A stretch of 64,000 bases of DNA, taken from assembly GCA_938034875.1 (NCBI GenBank), contig CALHND010000005.1, positions 160,385 to 224,384 of the forward strand. Direction: 5' to 3'. The translations under genes were made by a program, and so were the position numbers. Source of the stretch: an uncultured Clostridia bacterium. Lineage in GTDB: Bacteria > Bacillota > Clostridia > Oscillospirales > Acutalibacteraceae. Shown here in pieces: positions 7,673 through 27,676 of the stretch (positions are counted from its first letter, which is position 1; each line of letters begins with the position of its first letter). A model generated the notes under the pieces. It saw only the letters and a program-made list of their open reading frames with translations, had not been told where the DNA came from and searched no databases.

Positions 7673-8773
7673 TTACTTCATAGTAACACTGTTGTTCAGA
7701 ACGAGGGTGCTGTAAAGGAATAAAACATCTGCGTTTTCAAAATCAACATAATTTCCGATAAGCTCGCTGGAAATATAACGGATGTCAATCAACGTAATCT
7801 CGGCGTAACCCTCTGTAAGCAACGGCGCAATGCTGCTGCCAAAAGAATCCCTAAAAATAATCAATTTTTTGTCGGTTTTTGCATTTGCGTTTTTAATATT
7901 TATTAGTGACTTTGATCCCGAAAGATACATCTCATAAGGGTCTCTTCCGTTTGCCTTTTCCATGTCATAAACAGGAATATTAGTTTCTGTCTCAAAGTCG
8001 TAAACTTGACAGCCGTCAATAGTGTTGCTGGTCATATAATACATCTGTTCAGATGGAAGCGGCAGCGCCGACTGTCCGTAATACACACCGTAAAATGGGT
8101 TATCAAGCAGATTTGTGGTGTACTTACCGCTGATTGTTGCGCCCATCTCTGAGGCAAGCTTTTGAGCTACATCAACTATTTTTTCCTGACGCCAATGAGT
8201 GTCGGTTTTATAATAATCCTCAAGCTCAAGGCAATCGAAAATGTCGATGTACTGCATATATTCTGTCCTGTCTTTTAGATAACTGACGAACTTTTCGTAA
8301 TCGATTGACGGATAGCCGTTTTGGTTTGCCATAAAGTAATTTTTGTCGGGTATAATCGAAAAATACACATTTGTACCGTCGATGTTTAAATATTTTTCGT
8401 AAATACGCTTAAATTTAGCCAGCGCATTATCAAGCGATTCGGTATTCATGGGATATTCGATTTTTGACAAATATCCGTCATTTATATAAATATTATTCAT
8501 GTCCTTTTGTCCGAAAAGGTAGAATGCAGACAGCGCTTTCAGTCGTCTGAACGAATCTCTTAGCGGGAATTGGTCGGTGGTATAACTTTCGAAATCCTGC
8601 ATGAAATCGCCGCTAAAAATTTCATCCACGCTAACTTCCGGCATTGTTGCAAGCGGGCGTCTTTCGCTTTCGGACATAGCATCTGCCGGCTTTAAATAAC
8701 ACCAAGTCGAAAATACAAAGAAAAATACCGCCGCCGACAACACAGTTATAATGTTTTTTATTTTTGTTGACAT
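7673..8773 (-). CDS. DHHW family protein (DltD/AlgX-like accessory protein of an MBOAT acyltransferase)
   Basis: N-terminal TM segment and a YYKTDTHW (DHHW-type) motif. It lies immediately downstream of an MBOAT gene. Confidence 0.75.
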   Translation of the reverse strand: MSTKIKNIITVLSAAVFFFVFSTWCYLKPADAMSESERRPLATMPEVSVDEIFSGDFMQDFESYTTDQFPLRDSFRRLKALSAFYLFGQKDMNNIYINDGYLSKIEYPMNTESLDNALAKFKRIYEKYLNIDGTNVYFSIIPDKNYFMANQNGYPSIDYEKFVSYLKDRTEYMQYIDIFDCLELEDYYKTDTHWRQEKIVDVAQKLASEMGATISGKYTTNLLDNPFYGVYYGQSALPLPSEQMYYMTSNTIDGCQVYDFETETNIPVYDMEKANGRDPYEMYLSGSKSLINIKNANAKTDKKLIIFRDSFGSSIAPLLTEGYAEITLIDIRYISSELIGNYVDFENADVLFLYSTLVLNNSVTMK

Positions 8774-8785
8774 TGATATCCTCCT

Positions 8786-10183: not shown

Positions 10184-10203
10184 ACTTTTCTCCTCTTATT
10201 TAA

Positions 10204-10776
10204 TTATAACAGCGATTCCTCACAAGCCAGGGTTGCTGACTCATACGCTGCAAGTGTCTTTGTTTTGAATGTGTTTATCAATTCCTCATTGCCAAACGCA
10301 GATACTACATAGTTATCAACGGTTATTACAATGAGCTTGTCCGGGAATCCGCACATCCACTGTCTGTTTTTAATGTTTTCCTTAATCGAATCTACAACAT
10401 TAGTAACATCATCCGCATTTTTTATACGATATACTGCGGAGGTAAAGGTGTTTGCATTCATCATGTGAATCATAGAAGCGGCATCGTCAATTAAAGCTGC
10501 CGAATCCTGCGGCAAACCAAGTGTTGTGTCCAGTGCTTCTGCATTATCAGTTGGAAACTTGGCGGGGTGATCAATAAGCTCGCCTGACATATCTCCGCCA
10601 ACAACTGCAAATTTCTCATCCTCGGCATAGCTACCCCATACATTGTTAAGCAGAGTTTCTGAATCTGCGATTTCTGTCTTTGATGCGGTGTCTTTATTTC
10701 CATCTTCAGTTTTGCCGCATGCCGCAATTGCGAACACCAAGGCTACTGCTAAAACTAATGCGAATATCTTTTTCAT
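10204..10776 (-). CDS. lipoprotein (DUF4358-like), cotranscribed with sigma/anti-sigma
   Basis: Signal peptide plus lipobox LVFAIAAC-G; 190 aa. Confidence 0.55.
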   Translation of the reverse strand: MKKIFALVLAVALVFAIAACGKTEDGNKDTASKTEIADSETLLNNVWGSYAEDEKFAVVGGDMSGELIDHPAKFPTDNAEALDTTLGLPQDSAALIDDAASMIHMMNANTFTSAVYRIKNADDVTNVVDSIKENIKNRQWMCGFPDKLIVITVDNYVVSAFGNEELINTFKTKTLAAYESATLACEESLL

Positions 10777-10796
10777 GATTATTCCTCCGTGGTTTT

Positions 10797-11348
10797 TTAT
10801 TTTGTTGTTTTATTAATAATCCATTTCTGGTTATTGCTATAAGAAAGTATGACTTTGTCCGTTGTTTTTTGGTTGGCCAACGACATCTCGAATCGGGTTA
10901 TTTGCTCGCTTGCCTCAACAGTCCAAATTATAAAAACATCATTTTCTGTTTCCAAATTAACGCCCTCGTATATTAAGGTGCTGGTTTCACTATCAAAAAC
11001 CTGCATGGTGCCGCTCGAAACAGATATATTGGTATTATTCGCAACATCGATATTAAGAGAAGCTGAAAACTGCGCCGCCTGTTCTTGGTTCCTACGCCGT
11101 GCAGCTGCAACTGCATTTGACTCGGAAATTACAAGCGGCCGTGATGTAAGCTGTTTATCTAGCACCGTAATTATTGTATCCCCTTTCGGAAAGTACAAAA
11201 ACGCGGCTGCAATAATTAATAAAAAACACGCTGCTGCCGCGCACCATCTTTGCCAATGAATTATCTTGGCCGCCGGTACGTTATGCGCATCATTAATCAG
11301 GTCGTCGTCTATTTCTGTTATTGCGTTAACCAATGTTTCATGCTTCAT
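10797..11348 (-). CDS. putative anti-sigma factor (single-pass membrane protein)
   Basis: Overlaps the stop of the upstream sigma gene (ATGA). A short cytoplasmic N-terminus precedes one TM (WCAAAACFLLIIAAAFLYF) and an extracytoplasmic domain. Confidence 0.45.
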   Translation of the reverse strand: MKHETLVNAITEIDDDLINDAHNVPAAKIIHWQRWCAAAACFLLIIAAAFLYFPKGDTIITVLDKQLTSRPLVISESNAVAAARRRNQEQAAQFSASLNIDVANNTNISVSSGTMQVFDSETSTLIYEGVNLETENDVFIIWTVEASEQITRFEMSLANQKTTDKVILSYSNNQKWIINKTTK

Positions 11349-11905
11349 ACAGTGATTCCCACCTCCTCTAAATACTGCTTTAATTTATTTCGTGTTCTAA
11401 ATAAAACGGACTTTACTTTGCTTTCGCTTACTTTAAATAAAGCAGCTATTTGCGAAATTGAATCGCAATAAAAGTAACGGCACACAAAAATCCGTCGCAC
11501 CTGTTCGGGTTGCGTTCGCAAAAAATCACTTATGCTACGGCCTATCATTGCGTTATCCGTCTGGCTTTCCACGGTGAATGAGCCTGAAACGCATCCGTCT
11601 AATTCGTCCAGCGATAAAGCAAATTCAGCTGCTGCGCGTTTATCGGCATGACAGGCTTTATACCGATTGATTGCTAAATTTCTCGTAATCTTTGCGAGAA
11701 ATGCCGAAAGTGAGGTGGGGTGCTGCGGAGGTATAGCCTTCCACGCTTGCATATAAGTATCGTTTACACATTCTTCGCTTTCGAGCTCACTGCCCAAAAT
11801 GTTTAATGATATTTTCATACAATATGATCCGTATTTTGCGGAAGTCTCCTCAATAGCCTGCTCGTTGCGCTGTAAATACAGCTCTACGATTTCGCTATCA
11901 TTCAT
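11345..11905 (-). CDS. RNA polymerase sigma-70 family (ECF-type) sigma factor
   Basis: Region 2 (VNDTYMQAWKAIP) and region 4 HTH (ISQIAALFKVSESKVKSVLFRTRNKL). Preferred start MNDSEIVELYL with RBS AGGAAAGGAG. The longer frame extends to 11950. Confidence 0.8.
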   Translation of the reverse strand: MNDSEIVELYLQRNEQAIEETSAKYGSYCMKISLNILGSELESEECVNDTYMQAWKAIPPQHPTSLSAFLAKITRNLAINRYKACHADKRAAAEFALSLDELDGCVSGSFTVESQTDNAMIGRSISDFLRTQPEQVRRIFVCRYFYCDSISQIAALFKVSESKVKSVLFRTRNKLKQYLEEVGITV

Positions 11906-12221
11906 TGCAGTCTCCTTTCCTCTGTTTCGCCGTCCTAATAATATAGACAAGAAAATTTAAGTTTGGTTGCACAGAAAAATATATTTTTTTATTTTTTTAT
12001 AAATAATTTAATTTTGTTCGCTACAAGCTATTAAATAAACTATATTATATGTAACAGTAAAGGTCAATAAACAAATAATACCCCGTTACAAAATCGACTT
12101 TACTTTTAAAAACAAGTTGTTGCCCATTGTGCTTTACATGGATTTAATTCAGGAGTATTATCGGTATGGAATTAATAAAAGCGGCGGTCACAAATTAATG
12201 TGATCGCCGCTAATGTTTATA

Positions 12222-12992
12222 TCATAGTTTTCTTTTATTAAAAACGGAAACAGCAACTATTACGTTTATTGCAACAAGCAAGAGAGTAATTATCAGCGAG
12301 ATAATAAACTCTTTTGGCTGTGCAATTCCGGTCAATATTTCCATGCCGTTGCTCAGTTTAAGCGGAAGAAAGTTTTGTGTTTTTTGAAACATACTGAGGA
12401 TATACAATGCTAAAACGCAGCCTCCTGTTCCAAGCAAAACTCCTGTATTTGAGTTTGCAATTGCTGAAAACAGTATTACAAGTGAAATTACCCATACCCC
12501 AAACACATAATAGAAAAACGTTGCCGTAAAGAGATGATTTGCAATGCCGTTGTCCCAGAAATACGCGTTATAGCCGTATGTCACGGTATATGTGAGCGCG
12601 TAACCGGCTGTCCACAGCAATAACATTATAACTGCTTTAGCACTTATCACCTTCCATCTTGAAAGACCTTTTGTCAGCACGGGTATCAGCGTACCTCTAT
12701 GATATTCATTTGTCATACAACCGCAAAGCATTAAAACAAATATTATCAGCACCATGGGAATGTTTTTGTAAAACTGTGTCCATGAAGTAAGTGCTGTAAC
12801 CTCAATTTCAGATATAACCATTCCGCTTTCGGCAAGTGTGTCGGACATTAGTTCCATCATCCACGGTGTAAGCTTGGCAATAGCAGGATTCATTATGCCA
12901 AACAGCACAAAAATGATAAGCAGGATGATAAGCCGCCCACTTCTGAGCTGCTCCAGCCATTCTTTTTTTAAAAAAGCCACAAATGCTTTCAT
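12222..12992 (-). CDS. ABC-2 type transporter permease
   Basis: Six predicted TM helices; translationally coupled to the upstream ATPase. Confidence 0.6.
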   Translation of the reverse strand: MKAFVAFLKKEWLEQLRSGRLIILLIIFVLFGIMNPAIAKLTPWMMELMSDTLAESGMVISEIEVTALTSWTQFYKNIPMVLIIFVLMLCGCMTNEYHRGTLIPVLTKGLSRWKVISAKAVIMLLLWTAGYALTYTVTYGYNAYFWDNGIANHLFTATFFYYVFGVWVISLVILFSAIANSNTGVLLGTGGCVLALYILSMFQKTQNFLPLKLSNGMEILTGIAQPKEFIISLIITLLLVAINVIVAVSVFNKRKL

Positions 12993-13885
12993 TTGCCAAT
13001 CACCTCCATAAATACCGATTCAAGCGTCGGCTCACATTTTTCAAGGCGTGTAAATGAAATGTTTTGTTCAATCAGCAATTTCATGACATTTTCAATTTTA
13101 TCTCCGCTTTGAAAAAGCAGATGGCAACCGTTAATTAGCTCGGCCGTGGGAAAAGCCTGAGTAAGCAAGTAAGCATCTTGAGGGCTTTCAAGCTCAAGTT
13201 CAAAAGAATTACACTTGCGGTTTTGCTTAATGTTTTCAACTGAGCCGCTTTTTACGATATATCCGTTATGTAAAAAAGCAATTTCGTCACATATGCGCTC
13301 TACGTCCGACAAAATGTGTGTGGAAAACAGCACCGTTGTGTATTTCTTTGCCGAAACAAGAATATCAAGAATTTCTTTTCGACCGACAGGGTCAAGAGCA
13401 GAGGTCGGTTCATCGCATATCAGTAACATCGGCTCTCCAAGAAGAGCCTGCGCAATTCCAAGCCTTTGCTTCATCCCCCGAGAAAATCCTTTGATTCGGC
13501 TCTTTTCATTTGAAAGTCCGACAAGAGACAGCAATTCCTCGGATTTACTTAAAGCGGATTTTTTATCCATACAAAGAATGTCGCCGCAAAACATAAGATA
13601 CTCGGACGGTGTCATAAAGTTGTAAAATTCAGGAACATCCGGCAAATATCCTATATAGCGGTTGGTATTTGTCTGACCGTAATGTACCGTCTCACCGTTA
13701 ACTTTTACTGTGCCGTCGTCTTTTGATAAAAGTCCCAAAATTATTTTCATGCAGGTTGTTTTTCCGGCGCCATTTTGTCCGACAAAACCAAAAATCGTGT
13801 GTTCGGGCACACAAAAGCTAAGATCTTTTAACACCTCACGGCTTCCAAAGCTCTTTTTTACATTAGAAAGTTCTAAAATATCCAC
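12989..13885 (-). CDS. ABC transporter ATP-binding protein
   Basis: Walker A GQNGAGKTT, ABC signature FSRGMKQRL, Walker [13 protein letters not shown]. Confidence 0.85.
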   Translation of the reverse strand: MDILELSNVKKSFGSREVLKDLSFCVPEHTIFGFVGQNGAGKTTCMKIILGLLSKDDGTVKVNGETVHYGQTNTNRYIGYLPDVPEFYNFMTPSEYLMFCGDILCMDKKSALSKSEELLSLVGLSNEKSRIKGFSRGMKQRLGIAQALLGEPMLLICDEPTSALDPVGRKEILDILVSAKKYTTVLFSTHILSDVERICDEIAFLHNGYIVKSGSVENIKQNRKCNSFELELESPQDAYLLTQAFPTAELINGCHLLFQSGDKIENVMKLLIEQNISFTRLEKCEPTLESVFMEVIGK

Positions 13886-13888
13886 TTA

Positions 13889-14089
13889 TTAATCCTCTTT
13901 TCCAAGCAGAAAATACAGTATTGGTCCGATAAACTGCATTCCTACTATGCTGACAATAAGCCAAAGTGCACGGTTGCCTCGTTTATATGTTTTGTGGGTT
14001 AAAATGTGGTGAATCGTGTATCCTAAAAGCACAAGTTCCGCTATGGCAAGCGGAATCAAAAACGGTAGTAAATCGATTAGTTTATCCAT
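13889..14089 (-). CDS. PLDc_N-like small membrane protein
   Basis: 66 aa, two TM helices with an LWLIVSIVGMQFIGPILYFLLGK motif typical of the PLD-nuclease N-terminal domain family. Sits upstream of the ABC genes. Confidence 0.5.
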   Translation of the reverse strand: MDKLIDLLPFLIPLAIAELVLLGYTIHHILTHKTYKRGNRALWLIVSIVGMQFIGPILYFLLGKED

Positions 14090-14333
14090 AAAATCATTCC
14101 TCCGATTGTAAAGTTGTTTTATTATTTTAATGCAGTGTATGTATGAAAAGATAACAAATGCTTAATATACACAACATATATTTCATTTTCAGACGTTAGG
14201 GTAACAGATTTATTGATATTGCCGACTATTTCATTGTAGTTATTTATAATGTAGTTTTAAATATCAGTGACAATCAGTGCTTTTTTCTGCATATCACAAC
14301 CTTGCCGGAAATGCATTTTTTAAGCAAGTTTAT

Positions 14334-14630
14334 TTATTTAATAAGACAATTTACAGCTATGATTATCATAAACACAATGATTCCCATAATGGATACAAAA
14401 AGGCCTTTGCTTTTTGAGTTCTCGTTTTCTTTCATGAAAAAGCCGTATATTGCCCCACCCACACCAAGTGCAAAAGGTAACAGTATAGCAACCAATTTGG
14501 GTGCGGCAGTATTCCCGGATGAGCCAATGGAAAACTGAATAATAACCGACTCGGGAAGTATGAAGAAGGACAGGATTGCAAAGCCAATGGATGCAACAAT
14601 CATCAGTATAGGAACAATATTTCTTTTCAT
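14334..14630 (-). CDS. small membrane protein, hypothetical
   Basis: 98 aa, three hydrophobic helices. Confidence 0.35.
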   Translation of the reverse strand: MKRNIVPILMIVASIGFAILSFFILPESVIIQFSIGSSGNTAAPKLVAILLPFALGVGGAIYGFFMKENENSKSKGLFVSIMGIIVFMIIIAVNCLIK

Positions 14631-14660
14631 ATGTAAGCGTTCGCTTTCAGTTTTATTTTA

Positions 14661-15128
14661 TTACAGCTTGGATTTTTCGTAATTGTACGGAATACTCGTG
14701 CCGATAAGAACATCTTCAATTTTATCCACAATCAGCCAATCATCCATATTTGTTTGTTTTTCAAAATTTAAGGCAGGACTAATCGTTGTGGCGGAATCAA
14801 ATGACACAAGACAAATACACTTCTTACGCCACCTAGTTTCCTGCTTTTGCGTTAATATAAGTTTAGCCTTATTGTCAGAAAAGACCTTATCAATTTCATC
14901 TTCGGTCAGTTTCACATAGTTTTTCACATCGGTAACTTTTGCGGTTGCCGTTATTTTCAACGAACCTTTTTCCATGAAATACAATGTATCGCCACTAAAA
15001 ACTCTGCTATGAGGAATCTTTCGGCCTGCGGCACTCCGTATTACCATAGTCTTTTGTCCGGACATAATCCTATCCAATTCTCGTTCTCCGGATTTTCCCG
15101 CATTATCTGTATAAACAACATGGATCAT
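14661..15128 (-). CDS. ASCH (PUA-like) domain protein
   Basis: IMSGQKTMVIRSA ... GDTLYF matches the ASCH beta-barrel signature; 155 aa. Confidence 0.45.
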   Translation of the reverse strand: MIHVVYTDNAGKSGERELDRIMSGQKTMVIRSAAGRKIPHSRVFSGDTLYFMEKGSLKITATAKVTDVKNYVKLTEDEIDKVFSDNKAKLILTQKQETRWRKKCICLVSFDSATTISPALNFEKQTNMDDWLIVDKIEDVLIGTSIPYNYEKSKL

Positions 15129-15751
15129 AAATTTTCTCCTTTGTCTACAAAATTTATATGCTTATAAACTTATTCGCAATATGGTAAGCATGGCATCACG
15201 GGTTACACCGAGATATTCGTCATGTCTTTCATGGAGCACCTTCGTTCGATTAATAATTCAATTGCAATTTGCTCACTTTCGCACGAGCCTATACTAATTC
15301 AAATATATCATACTCCCATATGGAACGCAAATCAATGTTTTATAAGCATTTATGCAGAATTTTTATCAAATGTCACAGCAATGTCGAAATGCATTCTACA
15401 AACCAAAATGAACCGCTTTAAGCTACCTTATCGGTATTGCGTAGCAGCCTTTTGTTGTATTAAAAAACTCCCGGATAAAAAATTCGGGAGCATTGAATTA
15501 AAGTCCTTTTGTTTTTATAAATCATAAAGTTTCGCAGAAGATCCTTTTGTGAATGATTTTTTTAAATACATATTAGTTTAGCTTCAGAAAGTAGAAAAAC
15601 AAATCGTTTTGTTATAATTACCTTTTTGAATTTGCTTAAAGTGGCTTCATTTTGAGAACCGTTTAATGCAGTACACTTTATAGCATAAATTGTTACTATA
15701 CTGATTTTTTCACTCTTAAACGTCTCATTTTTAATTTAAATATATATAAAA

Positions 15752-15795
15752 GACTATATTTTAGAGAATTACCCCTAAAATATAGCCTCTTAATT
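15752..15795 (-). terminator. terminator after the cohesin-like gene
   Basis: Minus-strand hairpin GGCTATATTTTA-ggggtaattctc-TAAAATATAGTC followed by TTTTAT. Confidence 0.5.
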
Positions 15796-15833
15796 TATTC
15801 GTACAATTGATTTGCAATAACTTTATTAAATAA

Positions 15834-17264
15834 TTATGCCTTTTTCTTTTTAATAATAACAATGGTTGCTACACCTGCAATAACTACTATTGCGGCAACT
15901 ACAATTATTATCCAAAGCATATTATTTTTATCATTATTAGTAGATTTGTTGCCTGTACCGTTCACGGCAGTATCAGAAGGAGTCCCAACGTTTGTAGATA
16001 ATATAGGAATAACCTCTTCTTTAACATCTCCACAAGCTGTACAGGTTACAGTTTTGAGTCCTTCTTCTAAATCGGTAGCTTCTTTTGTTACTACTTCATC
16101 GCCGTATGTGTGTCCCTTTGCTTCAATGGTTTCCTTTGTCTTGGTGCCGCAATTGGAACAAGTGCATTCTTCTTCGCCGGCTGTCGTACAGGTTGCTTCA
16201 AGAATTACAACCGCATCTGTGAACTTGTGGCCGGTTGCTTTAATTGTCTTTGTGGTGTTTTTATTACAACGAGTACATTTGCCGGTTTCCGTTCCGGTAC
16301 TTGTACAAGTAGGCTCCTTTGTTACGGTTGATTTTGAGAATTGGTGACCAAGCGCACTTATAGCCTTTGTTTGAGTCTTATCACACTTTGTGCAAGTTCC
16401 TGTTTTCTCGCCTTTTTCGGTACAGGTGGCTTCCTTTGTTGTAGTCCATTTTTCCACTGAATGTCCAGTTGCTGCGATTGCTTTTGTTTCTGTATTCTGG
16501 CAAACTGAACAAGTTCTTGTACTTTCGCCTTTTGTTTCGCAGTCGGGTGCCTTTGTCTGTGTCCATGCACCGTATGTGTGACTGTTTGTTTTGGCTATGG
16601 TTTCAGTTTTTGTTCCGGAACAAACAGTACATGTATAGGTCTTTGTTCCTGCCTCCTTGCAGCTTGCGGCCTTTGTTACTTTGCCGCTGTCCCATGTATG
16701 AGCCTTGCTTTCAGTTGCTCCACAATTCGAACAGGTGTGGGTGTGATTAGTAGAATTTGTATTAGTATATTCACCGAAATCATGAGCTGCACAGCTTACG
16801 TTAATTGTTGCAGTTGTGTTACCAAAGGTGTTTTTGCCACCATCTGCATCTCGTGATTCGCTAAAATTCAATGTAACAGTTTTATTTCCCGTAGTTGCAT
16901 TGTCTTTAATTTTAAATTTAATGGTAGCAATTTTACCTGTTTTGGTATTGTTTGTTGTAGCAAGAGATTCTGCCCAACGAAGTGTATAAGGTGAACTAAT
17001 TGTCGGTGAAGGTGTAGTCCAACCCGCTAAAAGTCCAGAGTCGCTTACTCCTGTGAGCTCCAACCCATCGCCCCACGAAACAGTAAATTTCATTGTAATA
17101 AGTCCGGGGTTAGAATTAAGATTTACGTTTAATGAAACAGTTTCGCCTTGCTTGCCTTGTGCTCCGGAAAGAGCCAAGCTGCCTGATCCTGCTGCCGAAG
17201 CCGGAAACACCAATAACGCTAATGTTAAAACTAATGTTGCTATGATTGCTAATACTTTTTTCAT
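15834..17264 (-). CDS. membrane-anchored cohesin-like domain protein with Cys-rich tandem repeats
   Basis: Signal peptide. An N-terminal ~135-aa domain (GETVSLNVNLNSNPGLITMKFTVSWGDGLELTGV ... GKIATIKFKIKDNATTGNKTVTLNF) matches the cohesin beta-sandwich pattern. Then ~7 repeats of ~33 aa (A-TGH-xF...TKE-TCT..G..TG.C..C...TK.I). C-terminal TM plus KKKKA stop-transfer. Confidence 0.6.
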   Translation of the reverse strand: MKKVLAIIATLVLTLALLVFPASAAGSGSLALSGAQGKQGETVSLNVNLNSNPGLITMKFTVSWGDGLELTGVSDSGLLAGWTTPSPTISSPYTLRWAESLATTNNTKTGKIATIKFKIKDNATTGNKTVTLNFSESRDADGGKNTFGNTTATINVSCAAHDFGEYTNTNSTNHTHTCSNCGATESKAHTWDSGKVTKAASCKEAGTKTYTCTVCSGTKTETIAKTNSHTYGAWTQTKAPDCETKGESTRTCSVCQNTETKAIAATGHSVEKWTTTKEATCTEKGEKTGTCTKCDKTQTKAISALGHQFSKSTVTKEPTCTSTGTETGKCTRCNKNTTKTIKATGHKFTDAVVILEATCTTAGEEECTCSNCGTKTKETIEAKGHTYGDEVVTKEATDLEEGLKTVTCTACGDVKEEVIPILSTNVGTPSDTAVNGTGNKSTNNDKNNMLWIIIVVAAIVVIAGVATIVIIKKKKA

Positions 17265-17277
17265 GAGTAATTCTCCT

Positions 17278-19350
17278 TTAACCTATTTGAATATTCCAAC
17301 CAGCGAGGTGGCGGTCTAACATAACGCCGTCCCAGTCGGTTATTTCGCCATCGCCGTCAATATCCAATGCATCAATCACACTAATATCAACATCCCAGCC
17401 TGCTAAATATCGTGCCAGCACAACGCCGTCCCAGTCGGTTATTACACCGTCGCTGTCAACGTCGCCCAATTCGCACATCGGCTGTCCGCACACATCACAA
17501 ATGTCGTCATCACCATAAATATGACCGGTTTCTCTTTCAAAACTGCACTCATTACAAGTGGCATCACAGTCATTATCAAAGGTATGACCTATTGTACCCG
17601 TTTTTTCCCAACCGCATTCGTTACAGGTGCTATCAAAGCAGTCAGTATACGAATGCTCATCAGCGCATGTATTATAATGCCAAGTAGCATTTATTAAATT
17701 ATCGTTGTAACCATAACAACAAATCTCTTCTCTATCCTCTTCAGAACCGACGTACCATACATCAGTGAGATTTGTACAGTCCGAAAATGCTGATTCGCCA
17801 ATAAAAGTTGCATTAACGGGAAGTTGAATTTTTGTGAGGCTGAAGCATCTAGAAAATGTATAATTTCCGATAATTGTAACCTTATTGGGTATTACGATGC
17901 TTGTGATACTCTGGCAGCCGAAAAACGCTCGACTACCCAAGCTGGTTAAACTGTCGGAAAGGGTTACATTTGTAAGTTCTGCGCAGGCTTCGAACGCTTC
18001 GTCACCGATACTTGTTACGCTATCGGGAATGGCAATTTCGGTAAGACCTGTACATTCAAGAAATGCTCTGTTACCGATACTTGTTACGCTATCGGGAATA
18101 GTAATGCTTGTTATTTCGTAGTTGACAAAAAAAGCGTATTCACCAATGCTCGTCACGGTGCTGTCGGTAGGAATAGTGCTGTTTTTGCAACCTGCAACTA
18201 AAATTTTATTTTCAGTGTCGATAATGCAGTTCCCTGAGCTGTGATATACCGTGTTGCCGCTGTCTACCGTCATGCTTTCGAGCCCGACACAGCCGCCAAA
18301 AGCATTTTCGCCAATATTTGTTACGCTATCGGGAATAGTAATTCCTTCAAGCTCTTCTGCATAGACAAAGGCATAGTCTGCTATCGTTAATGTGCTGTCT
18401 TTTACAATATATGTATCGCAAATAGAGTACTTTGCACTAATTAAATGACTACCAATATACAAAACATCGTTTTCCCAATTATCTTCGTTGAGATAATATT
18501 CGGTATCCAAAAACGCGTCAATTCCAATGTTTGTTACGCTATCGGGAATAGTAATCCCTTTAAGCTCTTCTACATAGTAAAAGGCAAAGTCTGCTATCGT
18601 CAATGTGCCGTCTTTTACAACATATGTATCGCAATCAGAGTACTTTGCACTAATTAAATGGCTTCCAATATATAAGATATCGTTTTCCCAATTATCTTCG
18701 TTGAGATAATATCCGGTGCCCGAAAAAGCCGACATTTCGATGCTAGTTACGCTGTCGGTAAGGGTAATGCTTTCAAGTGCAGAACACTCCGCAAAAGCAT
18801 AAGCTCCGATGCTTGTTACACTATCGGGAATAATGATACTTGTGAGGTTTATGCAAAATTCAAATGCACCACGTTCAATGCTTGTTACGCCATTAGGAAT
18901 TGTTACGCTGGTAAGATCTTCGCAACCAACAAACATAAGTTCTCCTATGCTTGTTACGCCATCAGGAATTGTTGCGCTGGTAAGGCTGTCGCACCAACCA
19001 AAAGCAATGTCACCTATGCTTGTTACGCTGTCGGGAATGGTAATGCTTGTGATGCTCTCACAATACAAAAATGCACCTTTACCTATGCTCGTCACACCAT
19101 CAGGAATTGTTACGCTAGTAAGGTTTGTGCATTGAAAAAATGCTCTAACACCTATACTTGTTACCTCATAACCGCCTAATGTTGAAGGGATTGTCACATT
19201 ACCACTGATGTCTGTGCTAACATTCATAATGGTTGCTTTTCCATCAATTATAATGTATTTGTAATACCCTTCCGTTTCCGCGTTTGCGGTTAGGCTCACC
19301 GTCCCCATAACCACCACCAACGTCAAAATAATTGCTAGGATTCTTTTCAA
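17278..19350 (-). CDS. BspA-type leucine-rich repeat protein with a C-terminal type-I dockerin
   Basis: Signal peptide. About 20 LRR units of ~23 aa ([22 protein letters not shown]). A Cys-rich segment. The C-terminus is [24 protein letters not shown] ... [24 protein letters not shown], a duplicated Ca-binding dockerin loop. Confidence 0.8.
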   Translation of the reverse strand: MKRILAIILTLVVVMGTVSLTANAETEGYYKYIIIDGKATIMNVSTDISGNVTIPSTLGGYEVTSIGVRAFFQCTNLTSVTIPDGVTSIGKGAFLYCESITSITIPDSVTSIGDIAFGWCDSLTSATIPDGVTSIGELMFVGCEDLTSVTIPNGVTSIERGAFEFCINLTSIIIPDSVTSIGAYAFAECSALESITLTDSVTSIEMSAFSGTGYYLNEDNWENDILYIGSHLISAKYSDCDTYVVKDGTLTIADFAFYYVEELKGITIPDSVTNIGIDAFLDTEYYLNEDNWENDVLYIGSHLISAKYSICDTYIVKDSTLTIADYAFVYAEELEGITIPDSVTNIGENAFGGCVGLESMTVDSGNTVYHSSGNCIIDTENKILVAGCKNSTIPTDSTVTSIGEYAFFVNYEITSITIPDSVTSIGNRAFLECTGLTEIAIPDSVTSIGDEAFEACAELTNVTLSDSLTSLGSRAFFGCQSITSIVIPNKVTIIGNYTFSRCFSLTKIQLPVNATFIGESAFSDCTNLTDVWYVGSEEDREEICCYGYNDNLINATWHYNTCADEHSYTDCFDSTCNECGWEKTGTIGHTFDNDCDATCNECSFERETGHIYGDDDICDVCGQPMCELGDVDSDGVITDWDGVVLARYLAGWDVDISVIDALDIDGDGEITDWDGVMLDRHLAGWNIQIG
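17700..19250. repeat. tandem ~69-bp coding repeats (LRR units)
   Basis: The recurrent string cctatgcttgttacgct.tcgggaat.gt.atgcttgt appears many times. Confidence 0.7.
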
Positions 19351-19367
19351 TTTATACTACCTCTCCC

Positions 19368-21557
19368 TTATGCTATTTTTATATCCCAACCGGCGAGATA
19401 GCGGTCTAACATAACGCCGTCCCAGTCGGTTATTTCACCGTCTCCGTCAATATCCAATGCTTTCAATTCCGAAATTTCTACATCCCATCCTGCTAAATAT
19501 CGTGCCAGCATAACGCCGTCCCAGTCGGTTATTACACCGTCGCCGTCAACGTCGCCCAATATGTACTTTGTACGTCCGCATAAATCACAAATATCATCGT
19601 CGCCAAAATCGTGTTCAATTTCTCTTATTTCTCCGCATTTTTCGCAGCTGGGATCGCATACATCTTTGTATTCATGCTCGGTTTGTCTTTCATAACTACA
19701 TTCGTTACAATTAGGGTCGCAATCATTGTCAAATGTATGGTCGCTTACATCGCTTCTTACCCAGTCGCAATTCTCGCAAGTAGCGTCGTCACAACCCGTA
19801 TACGAATGCTCTGTTACACAGGTGTTATAATGCCATGTAACGGTTTCCAGCTCGTTATTATCCGAAAAGATAGATATTTTTTGTCTATCACTTTGAGAAC
19901 CGGTATACCACAAATCAGTCAAACTGGTGCATTCAAGAAATGCACCTTCACCTATGCTTGTTACGCCCTTTCCAATTATTACGTTGGTAAGGCCTGTGCA
20001 TTCAAAAAATGCTCCTTCGCCTATGCTTGTTACGCTGTCAGGAATTGTGATGCCTGTAAGGCCCTCGCAATATTCAAACATACAGTTTCCTATGCTTTTT
20101 ACGCCATTAGAAATTGTTACACTGGTAAGAGATGTACAGCCAGAAAACACACAATCACCTATGCTTGTTACATTGGCGGGAATAGTGACGCTTTTAAGCT
20201 GAGTGCACATGGCAAATGCACCTTCCCCTATGCTTGTTACGCTATTAGGAATTGTGATGCTTGTAAGGCTCTCGCAAAATTCAAACATACCGTTTCCTAT
20301 GCTTTTTATGCCATTAGAAATTGTTGCACTGGTAAGAGCTATACAGCAAGAAAACACATAATCACCCATGCTTGTTACATTGGCTGGAATAGTGATGCTT
20401 TTAAGCTGAGTGCAGCTGGCAAATGCACCTTCCCCTATGCTTGTTACGCTGTCGGGAATTGTGATGCTTGTAAGGCTCTCGCAACCGACAAATGCACCAT
20501 AACCTATGTTTTTTACGCCATTAGAAATTGTTACACTGGTAAGAGCAGTACATAAGGCAAACGCAGAATCACCTATGCTTGTTACGCTATCGGGGATTGT
20601 TATGCTTGTAAGGCTCACGCAACCGCCAAATGCACCTTCGCCTATGCTTGTTACGCCATTAGGAATTGTTGCACTGGTAAGTGCTGTACATAAAGCAAAC
20701 GCATAATCACCTATACTTGTTACACTATTAGGAATTGTGACACTTTTAAGACTTTCGCAACCATAAAACGCAAATGTATTTATACTTGTCACTTTGTTCG
20801 GAATGGTGACGCTGGTAAGAGCATAACACTCAGCAAACGCACCTTCGCCTAAATATGTTACACTGTTAGGGATTGTGGCACTTTTAAGACTTTCGCATAA
20901 ATTAAACGCATAATCACCTATACTTGTCACGCTGTTCGGAATGGTGATGCTGGTGAAAGCACACTCACTAAACGCAGCATAGCCTATATATGTTACACTG
21001 TTAGGGATTGTAACACTTTTAAGACCTTTGCATAAATCAAATGCATAATCACCTATACTTTTTACACTGCTCGGAATGGTGACGCTGGTAAGAGCAGAAC
21101 ACTCAGCAAACACACCTTCGCTTAAATTTGTTACACTGTTAGGGATTGTGGCACTTTTAAGACTTTCGCATAAAGCAAACGCATAATCACCTATACTTTT
21201 TACACTGCTTGGAATGGTGACGCTGGCGAGATTACTACACCCAGCAAACGCATAATCACCTATATATGTCACACTGTTAGGAATAGTGATGCTGGTGATA
21301 TTATAACGATTACCAAACGCAGCTTCGCCTATGCTTGTTACCGTATTGCTGCCGAATTTTGAAGGAATTGATACATTGCCGCTTATGGCTTCGTTAACAT
21401 ACACAATAGTTGCTTTTGAGTTAGCCACTGTATATAAATAATCTCCACTGGAATAATATTCGCTGGTATCCGCACTCGCGCTTAGTCCGGCCATCCCAAA
21501 AGGCAAAATGGAAACAACCAATACAAACGCTAAAACAATTGATAAAAATTTCTTCAT
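19368..21557 (-). CDS. BspA-type leucine-rich repeat protein with a C-terminal type-I dockerin (paralog)
   Basis: Same architecture as the neighbouring gene; 729 aa. Dockerin segments [24 protein letters not shown] and [24 protein letters not shown]. Confidence 0.8.
19900..21420. repeat. tandem ~69-bp coding repeats (LRR units), paralogous array
   Basis: The same unit as in 17700-19250, repeated more than 20 times. Confidence 0.7.
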
Positions 21558-22485
21558 TTCTGATCTTTCCTTCGTTTATTTGGCTTAATGGCCAAATTAA
21601 TAATTTGATTGAATAACGATAACGCCGTAAAAGTACTGTGATTATGCTACATCCAACGGTTTAAGATATCCACGTCAACATTTGCAATAACTTTGTCTCT
21701 ACAGCAGGTTATGGCCTCTGTAATATGACCGTCGGTTATTACAGGGCCTTCTGACTGCTTTTAATTTAACTTTGTATTTCCACATCGGTTTTGTTTACTA
21801 TTAAGCTGTCGCCAGGAGTAGATTAAAACCGGCAAAACATGACATTATTACAAAAGAAGAAATAATAGCAAGTGTTTTATTTTACATAATCTCATTTCTC
21901 CTTTTAAAGAAGGGACTTGCAGTGCACAAACGTTACCTCAATAAACCCAACGTCGAAGCAATTGCAGTTTTTTGAAAATATTTATAATAGTACCAAATAT
22001 GGCAATTTTTGTCAACAGTTATTTTGGTGTATTTCATTGATATTGAAATATAGATTGTTTATTTTATTATTGTGTGGTTTTACACAACTTCCAAATCTAA
22101 ATTTAATATGAGTATTTCATACAAACTCAAAAGCGTTTCTGTCGATTTACTCCTTTTGATGCTTTTGCGATAAAAGATATGTATGGATATAAAATTACGC
22201 AGGAGTTTGAGAAAAAGTAGCATCGGACGGTACAAACATCACTAAGAAACCAGCTCAGTTGGTAAACTATTATTATCGATTAAATATATTCGTAAAAACA
22301 TTCTTATATACTTTAAAAAGTGTTGAAGGTGCTTGTGTGGAATGCATATAATATTTATACTGCAAAAACTATTAAATACAGAAAAAAAAACCATTTACCT
22401 AAACTTAATGATACGGTATTAATGCCAACTATATCTAATGAACAGATAATTATTAAGGTGATATAACTGTATGAGGTGACTAATA

Positions 22486-22689
22486 ATGAATGAAAATGCA
22501 TTGACTACATTTAAAAAATTTCTAAGACCGTCTTTGTTTATTCTTGGCGGGTCGTTGCTCGGATTTTTGTACTATATACTCTTTGGTTGTACTAACGGGT
22601 GTGCAATCCAATCGAATCCGTATCTGATGGTTGTTTACGGAGCCGTTATGGCGTTTCTTATTTCGGTAATAATTAAAAAGGAGAAATGA
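22486..22689 (+). CDS. small two-TM membrane protein upstream of ccdA
   Basis: 67 aa, two hydrophobic helices and a CTNGC motif. The stop abuts the ccdA start. Confidence 0.35.
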   Translation: MNENALTTFKKFLRPSLFILGGSLLGFLYYILFGCTNGCAIQSNPYLMVVYGAVMAFLISVIIKKEK

Positions 22690-22693
22690 CAAA

Positions 22694-23359
22694 ATGCAAT
22701 ACATTATTTTATTTCTAGAAGGCATTATTACTTTTATTTCTCCCTGCCTTTTACCAATGCTTCCGATATACATTTCGTATTTTGCAGGAGGAGAAAAAGA
22801 GCGACCGTTAAAGAAAACATTAATCAATGCGTTTGGTTTTGTTCTGGGATTTACCGTAGTTTTTGTAATGCTCGGCGCTTTGGCTGGTACTGTCGGCAGC
22901 TTTTTAAGGCAACATACCGTCGCTGTTAATCTTATAACCGGACTTATTGTTGTATTCTTTGGGCTTAATTTCATGGGCGTATTCAAGTTGAATTTATTTC
23001 ATGGTATAAAGAATCCGTTTGCCGGAAAAGAACTTGGTTTTATTTCGGCGGTTCTATTCGGAATCATTTTCTCTATCGGTTGGACACCATGTGTAGGAGC
23101 GTTTCTGGGCTCTGCATTGATGCTTGCATCACAACAAGGTCATGTGATTAAAGGTATTCTTATGTTGCTTATCTATTCACTTGGACTCGGCATTCCGTTT
23201 ATCGCAAGCGCGTTGCTTATTGATAAACTTAAGGGTGTGTTTGGATGGATAAAAAATCATTACACAGTGATAAATATAGTCTGTGGCGGGTTGCTTACCG
23301 CTATCGGCATTTTAATGATGACAGGCTTGCTTGGACGATTCCTAGCATTACTCGGATAA
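22694..23359 (+). CDS. ccdA: cytochrome c-type biogenesis / thiol-disulfide transporter CcdA (DsbD core)
   Basis: Conserved FISPCLLPMLPIY and a second Cys in WTPCVGAFLG. Six TM helices. 221 aa. Confidence 0.8.
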   Translation: MQYIILFLEGIITFISPCLLPMLPIYISYFAGGEKERPLKKTLINAFGFVLGFTVVFVMLGALAGTVGSFLRQHTVAVNLITGLIVVFFGLNFMGVFKLNLFHGIKNPFAGKELGFISAVLFGIIFSIGWTPCVGAFLGSALMLASQQGHVIKGILMLLIYSLGLGIPFIASALLIDKLKGVFGWIKNHYTVINIVCGGLLTAIGILMMTGLLGRFLALLG

Positions 23360-23372: not shown

Positions 23373-23969
23373 ATGAATAAAACAACAAAGTTGCTTGCGG
23401 TCGTACTAATAGCGGTGATTGCGTTTATTGGTGTATATTTCTTATACACCAATTTATCCGGCAGGTATACCACAGATAATCTGCTGACCGAACAACAGCA
23501 AACAGATAAAACGGATGCCGCAGGCAGCCATCAGTCACAAGAATATTCACATAACCCTGCTCCCGACTTTTCGGTTATTGACGGTAATGGCAATAAAATA
23601 AAGCTGTCTGACATGAAGGGCAAACCAGTCGTTATTAACTTCTGGGCGACATGGTGTTATTACTGTAAGGTAGAGATGCCGGATTTTGAGGAGATGTATA
23701 AGCAGTACGGCGAAGACGTGCAGTTTATGATGGTCGATTTGACCGATGGAAAACGCGAAACCCTTGATGGTGCAAAAAAGCATATAAGTGATAACGGATT
23801 CACTTTCCCTGTATATTTTGATACCGATTCAGAAGCCGCGAAAGCATACAGCATTTCAGGAATACCTGCGACATATTTTATTGATGCCGAAGGTAATCTT
23901 ATTACCTATGTAAACGGTATGGTTGATGCGGAATTAATTGAAAAAGGAATTAAAATGATTACCAAATAA
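23373..23969 (+). CDS. TlpA/ResA-like thiol-disulfide oxidoreductase (membrane-anchored thioredoxin)
   Basis: N-terminal TM anchor and thioredoxin fold with the CxxC active site (VINFWATWCYYCKVEMP). Confidence 0.8.
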   Translation: MNKTTKLLAVVLIAVIAFIGVYFLYTNLSGRYTTDNLLTEQQQTDKTDAAGSHQSQEYSHNPAPDFSVIDGNGNKIKLSDMKGKPVVINFWATWCYYCKVEMPDFEEMYKQYGEDVQFMMVDLTDGKRETLDGAKKHISDNGFTFPVYFDTDSEAAKAYSISGIPATYFIDAEGNLITYVNGMVDAELIEKGIKMITK

Positions 23970-26344: not shown

Positions 26345-27676
26345 TTATTTATTCGTTGTTTTAGGAACAATTTCAATATAATCAACAAAAAACAAATATT
26401 TATTATTATTCACCTTAAGCTCTCTAACACGATATGCATCAGCATCTGCAATTTCACTTTGCGTTAAAACAAATCCTAAATAATATTCGCTTACTGGGCT
26501 TTTTAAACAATAATACTCCCCTAAATCAAGGTCTTCCTCTATCGAAAGAATGTCAACAGTTTGACTATTGTCACTGAATACAATTTCAACCAGATGAATA
26601 CAATTATTTTCAACTATCAATCCAAGTGAATCCACAAAAATCTCATCTTTGTACAAATTAAAATAATCTAATATTATAGCATCTTCATAATGCAGAGTTA
26701 CTGCACGACTTAATTTTTTTTCAAAATCACTGATGTCACTATCATTTTTTACATTCAAAAAGCAACCTACCACTGAAAAAACAACAACTATAACAATGCC
26801 AATTCTTTTTACCAATTTACTTTTTTTTATTCTTTTTTCAGTTTTATTATCATATATTTGAAAATTTGTATCTGGAAGAACTTCTACATCAAATAAGGAA
26901 ACCGGCTGTTCCTGTTCTATTGCCATAAGATATTTTTTAGAAAGGGTTGCATAGTCCATCCGAGGCGCAATGGAGATAATATTTTCAAAAAAGCTTTTTG
27001 CCTCCTTAAAATCTCCATTTTCATAACAAGCTATTGCATAAAAAAAATCATTTTGCAGTTTTCGCAGTTTTATATACCACACATTAGGTTTAAGTCCCAA
27101 ATTTCTTTCCTTGCATACAATTTTACACGCTTCGTAATTTTTATCCAAAAAATACCTATAATAGCTCCATACAGAATTAGATGAACTCAGGAAAGATTTT
27201 GATGGATAGTTTTCTTTATATTCATCATATTTTTTTAATAGAATTTGCAGTTTTTCAAAATCTCTTAATTCAAAATATATTAGAGCTAAAATACCTAAAT
27301 ATGAATACTTGCCCATTATTGAACTCTTTTTTTTTCGCATTTGAGTAGTTGCAATATTAACAGTTGTTTGATAATCACCCGTGCACATGGCAGCATTAAT
27401 ACGATAATCTAATGGCGGTATAAAAAATTTTCCTTTTATTAGTTCCTGAAATCCTATTGCATCGAGCTTTACAAACAAAACAGACGCTATTGTTTTATTA
27501 GCAACTATTCTTATAAGAAGTTTTACAGGAAAATAGAGTGCTGTACAAAACAATATAGACCAAACATTAGGATAAACAAATATACACGGAATAACTATGG
27601 CTATATAACATATTAAAATAAGAATACATTTGAAATAATATTGGCGCAATATGGCTTTTTGTGATGATGATTTCAT
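26345..27676 (-). CDS. membrane protein, putative immunity protein for the adjacent RHS toxin tip
   Basis: 443 aa. Two N-terminal TM helices and a mid-protein TM. AT-rich. Lies immediately downstream of the toxin module and is followed by the conserved hairpin. Confidence 0.45.
   Translation of the reverse strand: MKSSSQKAILRQYYFKCILILICYIAIVIPCIFVYPNVWSILFCTALYFPVKLLIRIVANKTIASVLFVKLDAIGFQELIKGKFFIPPLDYRINAAMCTGDYQTTVNIATTQMRKKKSSIMGKYSYLGILALIYFELRDFEKLQILLKKYDEYKENYPSKSFLSSSNSVWSYYRYFLDKNYEACKIVCKERNLGLKPNVWYIKLRKLQNDFFYAIACYENGDFKEAKSFFENIISIAPRMDYATLSKKYLMAIEQEQPVSLFDVEVLPDTNFQIYDNKTEKRIKKSKLVKRIGIVIVVVFSVVGCFLNVKNDSDISDFEKKLSRAVTLHYEDAIILDYFNLYKDEIFVDSLGLIVENNCIHLVEIVFSDNSQTVDILSIEEDLDLGEYYCLKSPVSEYYLGFVLTQSEIADADAYRVRELKVNNNKYLFFVDYIEIVPKTTNK

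Follow-up and report, generated by a model that had tools for sequence, protein, structure and literature searches.

In Ruminococcus flavefaciens, dockerins have been documented on LRR proteins, peptidases and serpins (PMC2930009, PMC5301203), and in R. bromii the LRR-dockerin CBL14720.1 (2x LRR protein) binds the anchoring cohesin Sca2 experimentally (Ze et al. 2015, PMC4611034). Single cohesins anchored by a transmembrane (TM) helix are described from R. difficilis, Ruminococcus sp. HUN007, JE7B6, zg921 and zg924 (bioRxiv 10.64898/2026.02.05.704116). In view of these systems, the non-cellulolytic use of the cohesin-dockerin module is not new. The behaviour of LRR-dockerins is nevertheless not always predictable, since most LRR-protein dockerins of R. 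flavefaciens FD-1 bound none of the tested cohesins (PMC5301203). From a different context, zinc sites have been predicted, not measured, in the CTD2 and CTD4 domains of the Thomasclavelia ramosa IgA protease (PMC12415215). Here we analyse a locus of a human-gut Clostridia bacterium at which a cohesin protein is encoded next to two LRR-dockerin proteins, and which an earlier note had read as a dedicated display system for LRR adhesins.

The locus lies in a window of 64 kb, by which we mean the whole stretch of DNA that was analysed, and its features are collected in Table 1. All three open reading frames of the earlier note were present, and the peptide strings quoted in it were recovered verbatim. 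Given the intergenic gaps of 13 and 17 nt and the ribosome-binding sites AGGAGA and GGGAGAGG, we read the three genes as an operon. The candidate promoter is positioned ~430 nt 5' of the LRR-Doc A start codon and the terminator-like hairpin 42 nt 3' of the anchor stop codon; as scans of the region gave promoter-like and terminator-like sites in numbers equal to the shuffle expectation, both are treated as candidates only. An Rfam scan of positions 15000-23000 returned no family match for a regulatory RNA in the ~430-nt leader. The only glycoside hydrolase (GH) of the window is a GH2 protein at 58941-61259, which carries no dockerin, and further cohesins or dockerins (the latter in all six frames) are absent from the 64 kb. 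A functional tie to the divergently transcribed CcdA/TlpA thiol-reductase pair was considered and discarded, as this neighbourhood is not conserved at the relatives' loci L001 and L002. Separately, a look-up of the anchor sequence located identical copies on human-gut contigs.

Table 1. Genes, domains and candidate signals of the locus (positions in the window; residues are those of the respective protein).
Feature	Position	Strand	Description
Candidate sigma-70-type promoter	21987..22015	(-)	TTGACA-17 nt-TACTAT with extended -10 TG; best-scoring site, 10/12
LRR-Doc A	19368..21557	(-)	729 aa; signal peptide, BspA-type LRR_5 region, four short His/Cys3 knuckles, C-terminal dockerin
Dockerin of A	19395..19559	(-)	Residues 667-721; two near-identical segments; Ca loops 19518-19553 and 19419-19454
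LRR-Doc B	17278..19350	(-)	690 aa; TTG start; 17-nt gap after A; signal peptide, LRR_5 region with insert, three His/Cys3 knuckles, dockerin
Dockerin of B	17305..17469	(-)	Residues 628-682; Ca loops 17428-17463 and 17329-17364
Cohesin anchor	15834..17264	(-)	476 aa; 13-nt gap after B; ribosome-binding site AGGAGA
Signal peptide of anchor	17193..17264	(-)	Residues 1-24, cleavage after PASA, as read from the sequence
Cohesin domain	16794..17186	(-)	Residues 27-157; predicted type-I-like all-beta sandwich
Stalk	15993..16793	(-)	Residues 158-424; one degenerate His2Cys2 unit, then six 39-aa units
Low-complexity linker	15924..15992	(-)	Residues 425-447; predicted disordered, pLDDT <50
C-terminal TM helix	15852..15917	(-)	L450-I471, predicted helical
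Cytoplasmic KKKKA tail of anchor	15837-15851	(-)	Directly after the TM helix
Terminator-like hairpin	15747..15792	(-)	20-bp AT-rich stem, then T/A-rich tail; consensus match only

The earlier note had assigned a cohesin module to the N-terminus of the anchor, and this assignment is borne out both by the profile match and by structure prediction: Cohesin (PF00963) matches residues 30-153 over model positions 3-136 of 139 with an E-value of 8e-10 and 39.5 bits against a gathering threshold of 24.1 (Pfam), and the predicted structure of the domain is an all-beta jelly-roll sandwich. The AF2 model was built from a 96-sequence alignment; single-sequence AF2 gave a pLDDT of 37. A phmmer search of the whole anchor against PDB sequences returned spurious matches only and a profile search was used instead. 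By TM-score, the solved cohesin that comes closest is CaCohA2 (6kgc/6kgf); its crystal complex also contains CaDoc0917 (6kg9/6kgc), which is the best match among solved cellulosomal dockerins. At the N-terminal end, residues A24, A25 and G26 are conserved in the family and the model shows a helix at residues 2-19. As modelled, the N-terminal domain thus has the cohesin fold; Ca-dependent dockerin binding by this putative receptor is suggested by the conserved gene adjacency and the co-variation described below.

The six 39-aa units of the stalk follow the pattern H-x12-C-x9-C-x2-C; the stalk is modelled with three short strands per unit (pLDDT ~90), and its Cys and His columns vary little or not at all among 96 homologues. 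In the profile comparison, the stalk matched 9qa6_A, the T. ramosa IgA protease, with an E-value of 9e-6 in two stretches (residues 848-968 and 1073-1142). Judged by sequence, the repeats are homologues of CTD2/CTD4, the "periscope" domains of this protease for which Zn binding is predicted, and the stalk is presumably occupied by zinc. Tethering by a C-terminal TM helix, also claimed earlier, is likewise upheld, the predicted helix being kept in 119 of 120 anchor homologues and the basic tail in 115 of them. An LPXTG-like motif ([LSIV]P.[TSA]G in the last 60 residues) was found in 0/120 homologues and is also lacking at the C-terminus of this anchor; sortase anchoring was therefore rejected. 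With a signal peptide, a single cohesin and a C-terminal TM helix, the anchor exhibits the features of TM-anchored monovalent cohesin proteins, and not the C-terminal LPXTG-type signal of sortase-anchored scaffoldins of the ScaE, Sca2 or cSca5 type.

The two upstream genes had been described as encoding BspA-type LRR proteins that end in duplicated Ca-binding dockerin segments, and the domain searches agree with this description. LRR_5 (PF13306) scores 564 bits in A and 451 bits in B (Pfam), in five stretches of each protein, and both sequences start with an N-terminal signal peptide as far as can be read from them, the combination that characterises BspA-type LRR proteins. A and B are paralogues with 40-49% identity, and the LRR_5 region of B is interrupted by an internally duplicated non-LRR insert. 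For both proteins the best NCBIfam match is the adhesin HupY/LrrG model, at 174 and 244 bits and hence far under its cut-off of 1250; an adhesin role of the BspA-type LRRs would here be assigned purely by analogy. Homology of the His/Cys3 knuckles to the 39-aa stalk units of the anchor was considered as well: the unit HMM scores the knuckles at E ~0.1, so that homology is unsupported and the ligand pattern alone is held in common.

Dockerin_1 (PF00404) scores 38.8 bits in A and 27.7 bits in B against a gathering threshold of 22.9 (Pfam). Each protein contains two segments of ~22 residues with an EF-hand-like loop, D/N at loop positions 1, 3 and 5 and D at position 12, as in type I dockerins, where a helix follows each loop, and a six-frame search of the 64 kb with the expression D-x-[DN]-x-[DN]-G-x5-[DN] gave exactly four matches, two each in A and B and none outside. 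Aligned with type I dockerins of solved structure (6kg9, E 7e-8; 1ohz, 1.4e-4; also 3ul4), the segments need no gaps and have the Ca ligand positions matched; their similarity to PDB entries of R. bromii dockerins is weak (E ~0.04). At the level of sequence, the C-terminal modules of A and B are thus dockerins with intact duplicated Ca-loop motifs. The earlier note had set the cohesin fold and the geometry of these loops as its tests beforehand: the fold is predicted and, in sequence, the loop motifs are intact.

The arrangement of the genes was compared with that in close relatives, which are gut MAGs of the Acutalibacteraceae and Oscillospiraceae. R. bromii is placed in the GTDB family Acutalibacteraceae, and its lineage is that of the MAGs in which a dockerin-bearing cargo gene is joined to such an anchor. 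In 13/13 informative close relatives and in five more distant ones, a dockerin is encoded in the gene immediately 5' of the anchor, often across the same gap of 12-14 nt. The cargo itself is unrelated between loci, comprising LRR_5 proteins, Flg_new repeats, Big_3-containing, phage-lysozyme/SH3 and unknown domains, with the dockerin in C-terminal, N-terminal or internal position, and the genomic flanks of the pair vary. Close cohesins are paired with dockerins of the type ITDWDGVxLxRYLAGW, and the divergent cohesins of L012, L016 and L017 with the type KINSLDGLxLLRxLNGW; these are the only three loci with the alternative subtype and also the most divergent overall. Dockerin subtype correlates with cohesin clade with a Mantel r of 0.90 (p = 1e-4, n = 18) and, when stalk divergence is controlled in a partial Mantel test, with r = 0.82 (p = 4e-4, n = 13), both values being partly confounded by shared phylogeny. 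As adjacency is kept despite changing cargo and flanks, and as the subtype tracks the clade, the adjacent dockerin and cohesin genes very probably encode cognate partners. The clustering of cohesin and dockerins as a surface-display unit, as the earlier note had it, gains strong support from these data, with binding as the putative step. Its proposal of a dedicated LRR display does not extend to the family, across which the anchor is paired with other cargo besides LRR proteins.

Taken together, we consider it probable that the three genes form an operon for non-covalent surface display. Each of the proteins would be exported via Sec, and the anchor would be held in the cytoplasmic membrane by its C-terminal TM helix, its basic tail pointing into the cytoplasm. 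The single N-terminal cohesin would then be carried through the wall by the disordered linker and a rigid stalk, in which Zn(Cys/His) sites would stabilise about seven mini-domains. Cleavage of the signal peptide would free both LRR proteins from the membrane, whereupon their C-terminal dockerins could be captured by the anchor cohesin in a Ca2+-dependent manner, probably in either of two orientations, as the two dockerin halves are nearly identical. Captured in this way by their C-termini, the LRR solenoids would point away from the cell and act as adhesin-like modules for ligand binding. Since the anchor offers a single cohesin, its two cargoes A and B would compete for it or occupy it in turn: a stoichiometry that is odd for a "dedicated" system. 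It is further conceivable that the height or the stability of the display might depend on zinc.

A different arrangement would have the LRR-dockerins dock mainly on multi-cohesin scaffoldins of a larger amylosome- or mucinolysome-like network, with gene adjacency reflecting co-regulation or ancestry, or with the anchor chiefly tethering a scaffoldin. Cohesin domains related to the one described here do occur in many multi-cohesin proteins (P0121, for example, has five cohesins at 40% identity), scaffoldin-like proteins with both cohesin and dockerin are present in some related MAGs (L019, L022, L023, L027, L030), and the anchoring cohesin of R. bromii and Limousia binds many dockerins, including those of scaffoldins. 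However, the cargo-dockerin/anchor pair stays together while cargo, dockerin position and flanks change, the dockerin subtype follows the adjacent cohesin even with stalk divergence controlled, and the 64 kb contain no further cohesin or dockerin; on balance we regard this arrangement as unlikely. Far less credible still is that the cohesin-like domain has lost dockerin binding and recognises another ligand, in which case three independent surface or secreted proteins would merely share an operon.

What the displayed proteins do is a separate matter. The display unit could function as outlined and the LRR proteins still serve in contact or aggregation between bacteria, or in protein recruitment, in place of adhesion to host or substrate; the term adhesin would then be a misnomer. 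LRR_5/BspA-type domains are generic protein-binding solenoids, and in relatives the anchor is found with a lysozyme/SH3 wall hydrolase and with repeat proteins of unknown function, which points to a general-purpose tether and not to one specialised in adhesion. Nothing in the sequence separates this possibility from an adhesin function, and the best NCBIfam match, albeit far under its cut-off, is an adhesin; we consider this possibility less likely than not, yet a serious contender.

Display by cohesin capture, if it works as proposed, would offer a route, independent of sortase, by which adhesin-like LRR proteins meet host or food particles, and would turn the neighbouring gene into a simple genomic rule for finding the cohesin partner of orphan dockerin proteins. 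This is of relevance as the R. bromii/Acutalibacteraceae lineage is an abundant group of gut Clostridia whose surface decoration is little understood. The combination of cohesin, rigid Zn stalk and TM helix would, on the same premise, also be a compact natural module that engineers of surface display could adopt. As a tentative extension, to which we give somewhat less than even credence, the family may represent a portable display cassette, in which any dockerin cargo is combined with a private cohesin/Zn-stalk/TM anchor, with specificity co-evolving and insulated from the scaffoldin network. If true, a sortase-independent, plug-and-play anchoring route would be widespread in gut Acutalibacteraceae/Oscillospiraceae, and this could explain many ruminococcal LRR-dockerins without a scaffoldin-cohesin partner (PMC5301203).

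In comparison with described systems, the locus differs from a cellulosome in the strict sense: within the 64 kb there is one cohesin, no CBM, and the cargo is without GH domains. We found no description in the literature of a portable cassette of cargo plus private anchor, nor of a Zn stalk on a cohesin anchor. The closest solved complex, CaCohA2-CaDoc0917 from Clostridium acetobutylicum (PDB 6kgc-6kgf, 6kg9), is likewise of type I, with a cohesin identity of only 16%; in contrast to the locus described here, CaCohA2 is part of a multi-cohesin scaffoldin, and the dockerin it pairs with belongs to a GH9 enzyme. As for the stalk, it shares the H...C...CxxC ligand pattern with CTD2/CTD4 of T. 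ramosa (PMC12415215; PDB 9qa6), together with the proposed role of a Zn-stabilised spacer that projects a functional domain from the surface (PMC12415215); CTD2/CTD4 are, however, interleaved with other domains in a sortase-anchored metalloprotease, whilst the stalk is a uniform tandem array of six to seven units under a cohesin.

Sca2 of R. bromii, like the anchor, is tethered to the cell and monovalent; its cohesin binds, by experiment, dockerins from proteins that are not glycosidases (PMC4611034). Sca2 ends in a C-terminal sortase signal, whereas the anchor has a TM helix and a KKKK tail without LPXTG; Sca2 is moreover promiscuous and unlinked to its cargo genes, whilst here the genes for cargo and anchor lie side by side and co-vary. 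In the R. flavefaciens sca cluster, too, one locus encodes both CttA, a non-enzymatic protein for adhesion that ends in a dockerin, and ScaE, the monovalent cell-surface anchor cohesin to which CttA binds (PMC5301203). The proteins of the 2026 preprint, matched by description, share with the anchor the single cohesin, the C-terminal TM helix in the lipid bilayer and the relationship to R. bromii; LRR, Flg and SH3 modules are among the components of these systems, which the preprint reads as starch- or fibre-degrading assemblies, with no mention of a Cys/His (zinc) stalk or of cargo-anchor gene adjacency (bioRxiv 10.64898/2026.02.05.704116). Thus, hanging non-enzyme proteins on the cell surface through cohesin and dockerin is probable at this locus but familiar as a concept, and the established picture, in which cohesin-dockerin pairs serve well beyond cellulose degradation, is left unchanged.

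The three genes of the operon, encoding two BspA-type LRR proteins that end in dockerins (LRR-Doc A and LRR-Doc B) and a cohesin protein (the anchor), are closely packed, with a strong Shine-Dalgarno sequence both in the 17-nt gap between LRR-Doc A and LRR-Doc B (GGGAGAGG) and in the 13-nt gap preceding the anchor gene (AGGAGA), and all three products carry typical N-terminal signal peptides. A promoter-like site ~430 nt upstream of LRR-Doc A and an AT-rich hairpin 42 nt past the final stop codon are consensus matches only, occurring at the frequency expected by chance, and an Rfam scan of the operon region matched no family. The earlier note had read these genes as a cohesin-like membrane protein beside two BspA-type LRR proteins with duplicated calcium-binding dockerin segments, and Pfam bore these assignments out: anchor residues 30-153 match Cohesin (PF00963; 39.5 bits, threshold 24.1), both LRR protein C-termini match Dockerin_1 (PF00404; A 38.8 and B 27.7 bits, threshold 22.9) and LRR_5 scores 564 bits in A and 451 bits in B, above the curated threshold. 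A six-frame scan of the 64 kb returned exactly four matches to the dockerin calcium-loop motif, two in each LRR protein, and an ungapped alignment of both dockerins to solved type I dockerins places the calcium ligands in register; among solved structures, the cohesin ranking first by TM-score and the cellulosomal dockerin that matches best both belong to the C. acetobutylicum CohA2-Doc0917 crystal complex. Each dockerin consists of two near-identical halves, a symmetry that accompanies a dual binding mode in other systems. In LRR-Doc B the LRR array is also interrupted by a non-LRR segment that is duplicated in tandem (GYYLNEDNWEND..., twice); LRR-Doc A is without this insert.

Coordinates of features in the window and at loci of anchor relatives in other genomes (L numbers)
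Feature	Position	Strand	Details
LRR-Doc A	19368-21557	-	729 aa
LRR-Doc B	17278-19350	-	690 aa, TTG start
Anchor	15834-17264	-	476 aa
Anchor cohesin	residues 27-157		
Anchor stalk	residues 158-424		one degenerate His2Cys2 unit, six regular 39-residue units
Anchor linker	residues 425-447		disordered
Anchor TM helix	L450-I471		then tail KKKKA
LRR-Doc A knuckles	residues ~583-662 (19572-19811)		between LRR region and dockerin
LRR-Doc B knuckles	residues ~565-625 (17476-17658)		between LRR region and dockerin
LRR-Doc B duplication	residues ~205-330		non-LRR
CcdA/DsbD_TM protein	22694-23359	+	membrane protein
TlpA/ResA-like thioredoxin	23373-23969	+	
Operon-CcdA intergenic region	21558-22693		1.1 kb
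ECF sigma factor and overlapping gene	10797-11950	-	sigma factor 11345-11950; overlap 4 nt
RHS ORF	27805-29187	-	460 aa
ORF downstream of RHS ORF	26345-27676	-	443 aa
L002 region holding the pair	1-17911		GCA_045539925.1, JAZQGH010000029.1
L005 cargo	4413-7946		dockerin N-terminal, residues 28-95 of 1177
L015 cargo	1307-4927		dockerin internal, residues 885-954 of 1206
L017 cargo	3110-4540	+	phage lysozyme, SH3 and dockerin; next to cohesin-TM anchor

Within the anchor, the regular stalk units follow the pattern H-x12-C-x9-C-x2-C, each being predicted as three short strands (pLDDT ~90), and across 96 homologues their Cys and His positions vary little or not at all. The anchor-family profile matches residues 848-968 and 1073-1142 of the IgA protease structure 9qa6_A (E 9e-6); in the Thomasclavelia ramosa IgA protease, CTD2 and CTD4 are beta-sheets joined by predicted Cys/His zinc sites, for which the authors propose a metal-binding 'periscope' fold, not characterised before, that would keep functional domains at a distance from the cell (PMC12415215). 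The C-terminal tether claimed for the anchor is present as well: a TM segment is found in 119 of the 120 best homologues and a basic tail in 115, while none of the 120 exhibits an LPXTG-like motif, and therefore the anchor is held by membrane insertion and not by sortase. Both LRR proteins carry shorter tandem His/Cys3 knuckles (three or four per protein, ~20 aa each, H-x4-5-C-x3-C-x2-C), for which Pfam holds no family and which are missing from the LRR-dockerin cargo of L010. Homology of these knuckles to the much longer stalk units is not supported: since the stalk-unit HMM reached only E ~0.1, the ligand pattern alone is common to both.

Comparison with anchor relatives revealed a dockerin of the same subtype in the gene that directly precedes the anchor gene (the cargo) at all 13 informative close loci (L001, L002, L004, L005, L006 and L010-L017), often with a gap of 12-14 nt as in the window. 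Two close loci were uninformative: L009 begins within the anchor gene, and the upstream gene of L003, cut at the contig end, resembles the L005 cargo with its N-terminal dockerin. A dockerin gene also precedes the anchor at five more distant loci (L018, L020, L031, L034, weakly, and L039), and L031 has the same layout as the window, a cohesin-TM gene preceded by two LRR-dockerin genes. The cargo itself changes: LRR_5 (window, L010, L012, L013, L016), Flg_new repeats (L005), Big_3 (L001), phage lysozyme with SH3 (L017), peptidase-like (L018) or without recognisable domain (L002, L004, L006, L011). The dockerin may be C-terminal, N-terminal or internal, and at L005 and L015 its subtype and place beside the anchor gene are unchanged despite its altered position. 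The flanks also differ: HSP90 and glycosyltransferases at L001, an ABC transporter and CcdA/TlpA in the window, and resolvase, integrase, serine recombinase, Amidase_3 and DnaB-like genes at L002. These L002 surroundings resemble a mobile element or prophage and would fit transfer of the pair as a cassette. As pairing is kept while cargo, dockerin position and flanking genes differ, the pair behaves as a persisting unit. The L017 cargo, a peptidoglycan hydrolase, would be tethered on the producer's own surface.

Dockerin subtype tracks cohesin clade: 'ITDWDGVxLxRYLAGW' dockerins accompany the close cohesins and 'KINSLDGLxLLRxLNGW' dockerins those of L012, L016 and L017. Neighbouring dockerins and cohesins show correlated pairwise identities (Mantel r = 0.90, p = 1e-4, n = 18), also when divergence of the stalk from the same protein is controlled for (partial Mantel r = 0.82, p = 4e-4, n = 13); because shared ancestry still inflates these values, we take the co-variation as supportive of cognate pairing, short of conclusive. 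The main alternative is that the dockerins mostly serve a larger scaffoldin network encoded elsewhere in the genome, outside the 64-kb view. The cohesin domain alone matches 2456 cluster representatives at E <= 1e-3 and 675 at <= 1e-10 (among 1.84 billion), multi-cohesin scaffoldins among them; conserved pairing and co-variation favour the neighbouring anchor, and we regard such a network as rather improbable. Far less probable still is a cohesin-fold domain that has lost dockerin binding. The cohesin is the best-conserved part of the anchor (mean identity 80% vs 61% for the stalk).

The data establish the domain identities, the cohesin fold, the operon layout, the conserved pairing and the co-variation; we consider it likely that the anchor captures the LRR-dockerins on the cell surface. 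All three proteins would be exported, the C-terminal helix keeping the anchor in the membrane while a putatively zinc-stiffened stalk and the linker lift the cohesin through the wall; released LRR proteins would be caught as their dockerins bind the cohesin in a calcium-dependent manner, probably in one or other of two orientations, and their LRR solenoids would face outward. A single cohesin would have to serve both cargoes, with LRR-Doc A and LRR-Doc B sharing or competing for anchors. Whether the displayed LRR modules are adhesins is an uncertainty separate from the display mechanism; another role is unlikely, albeit with an appreciable chance. The surface-display reading first proposed gains in silico support from conserved pairing and co-variation, but the family anchor is not LRR-specific, as the Flg_new, Big_3 and lysozyme-SH3 cargo illustrates.

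The 7.4 kb around the anchor are 100% identical to two human-gut metagenome contigs of ~292 kb, and the anchor relatives from species-representative genomes belong to gut MAGs of human, deer, sheep and rabbit origin, nearly all of them bearing the labels Acutalibacteraceae, Oscillospiraceae, Faecousia, Eubacteriales or Clostridia. The remaining window is ordinary chromosome (UvrC, ETF, FGGY kinase, GH2, ABC transporter, ECF sigma factor). Divergent from the operon lies the extracytoplasmic thiol-reducing CcdA/TlpA pair; the operon's exported proteins contain 35, 28 and 21 cysteines, and this adjacency is probably coincidental, as it is not kept at L001 or L002, the two loci compared. The ECF-type sigma factor, 4 kb downstream of the operon, overlaps a gene whose 183-aa product has a single TM segment, matches no family and is probably the anti-sigma factor. 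The RHS ORF starts within an RHS region; behind its RHS repeat-associated core (TIGR03696, 65 bits) comes a C-terminal tip that has no annotation and resembles an RHS toxin tip, either orphan or truncated. The ORF downstream has no family match, and GC at 24-28 kb is only 32% vs ~36-46% across most of the window.

In the literature we found no description of a conserved, portable unit in which a cargo-dockerin gene leads straight into the gene for its private cohesin anchor and the cargo is exchanged, nor of a homogeneous Zn-type periscope stalk under a cohesin. We tentatively suggest, as a possibility somewhat short of even, that cargo and anchor form a self-contained, co-evolving, sortase-independent display cassette widespread in gut Clostridia. 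The non-cellulolytic cohesin use put forward in the earlier note is supported in silico, but as a concept it is long established (PMC2930009, PMC5301203, PMC4611034): dockerin proteins of R. flavefaciens FD-1 include 28 LRR modules alongside peptidases, serpins and transglutaminases (PMC2930009, PMC5301203), and for R. bromii, experiments have shown that Sca2, a monovalent cohesin anchored on the cell, is bound by the dockerin of a 2x LRR protein (PMC4611034). A 2026 preprint describes single cohesins on C-terminal TM helices from R. difficilis, Ruminococcus sp. HUN007 and others, in systems whose components include LRR, Flg and SH3 modules (bioRxiv 10.64898/2026.02.05.704116). The 'mucinolysome' of Limousia spp., genomes of which carried the source-database labels Anaeromassilibacillus or Acutalibacteraceae sp., owes its anchoring to a single cohesin attached through sortase (PMC12997984). 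In R. flavefaciens, the majority of LRR-protein dockerins did not bind any scaffoldin cohesin tested (PMC5301203); private partners encoded next door would be one explanation, a speculative one for this different organism. In CttA-ScaE of R. flavefaciens, an adhesion protein and the anchoring cohesin that binds it are likewise encoded in one locus (PMC5301203).
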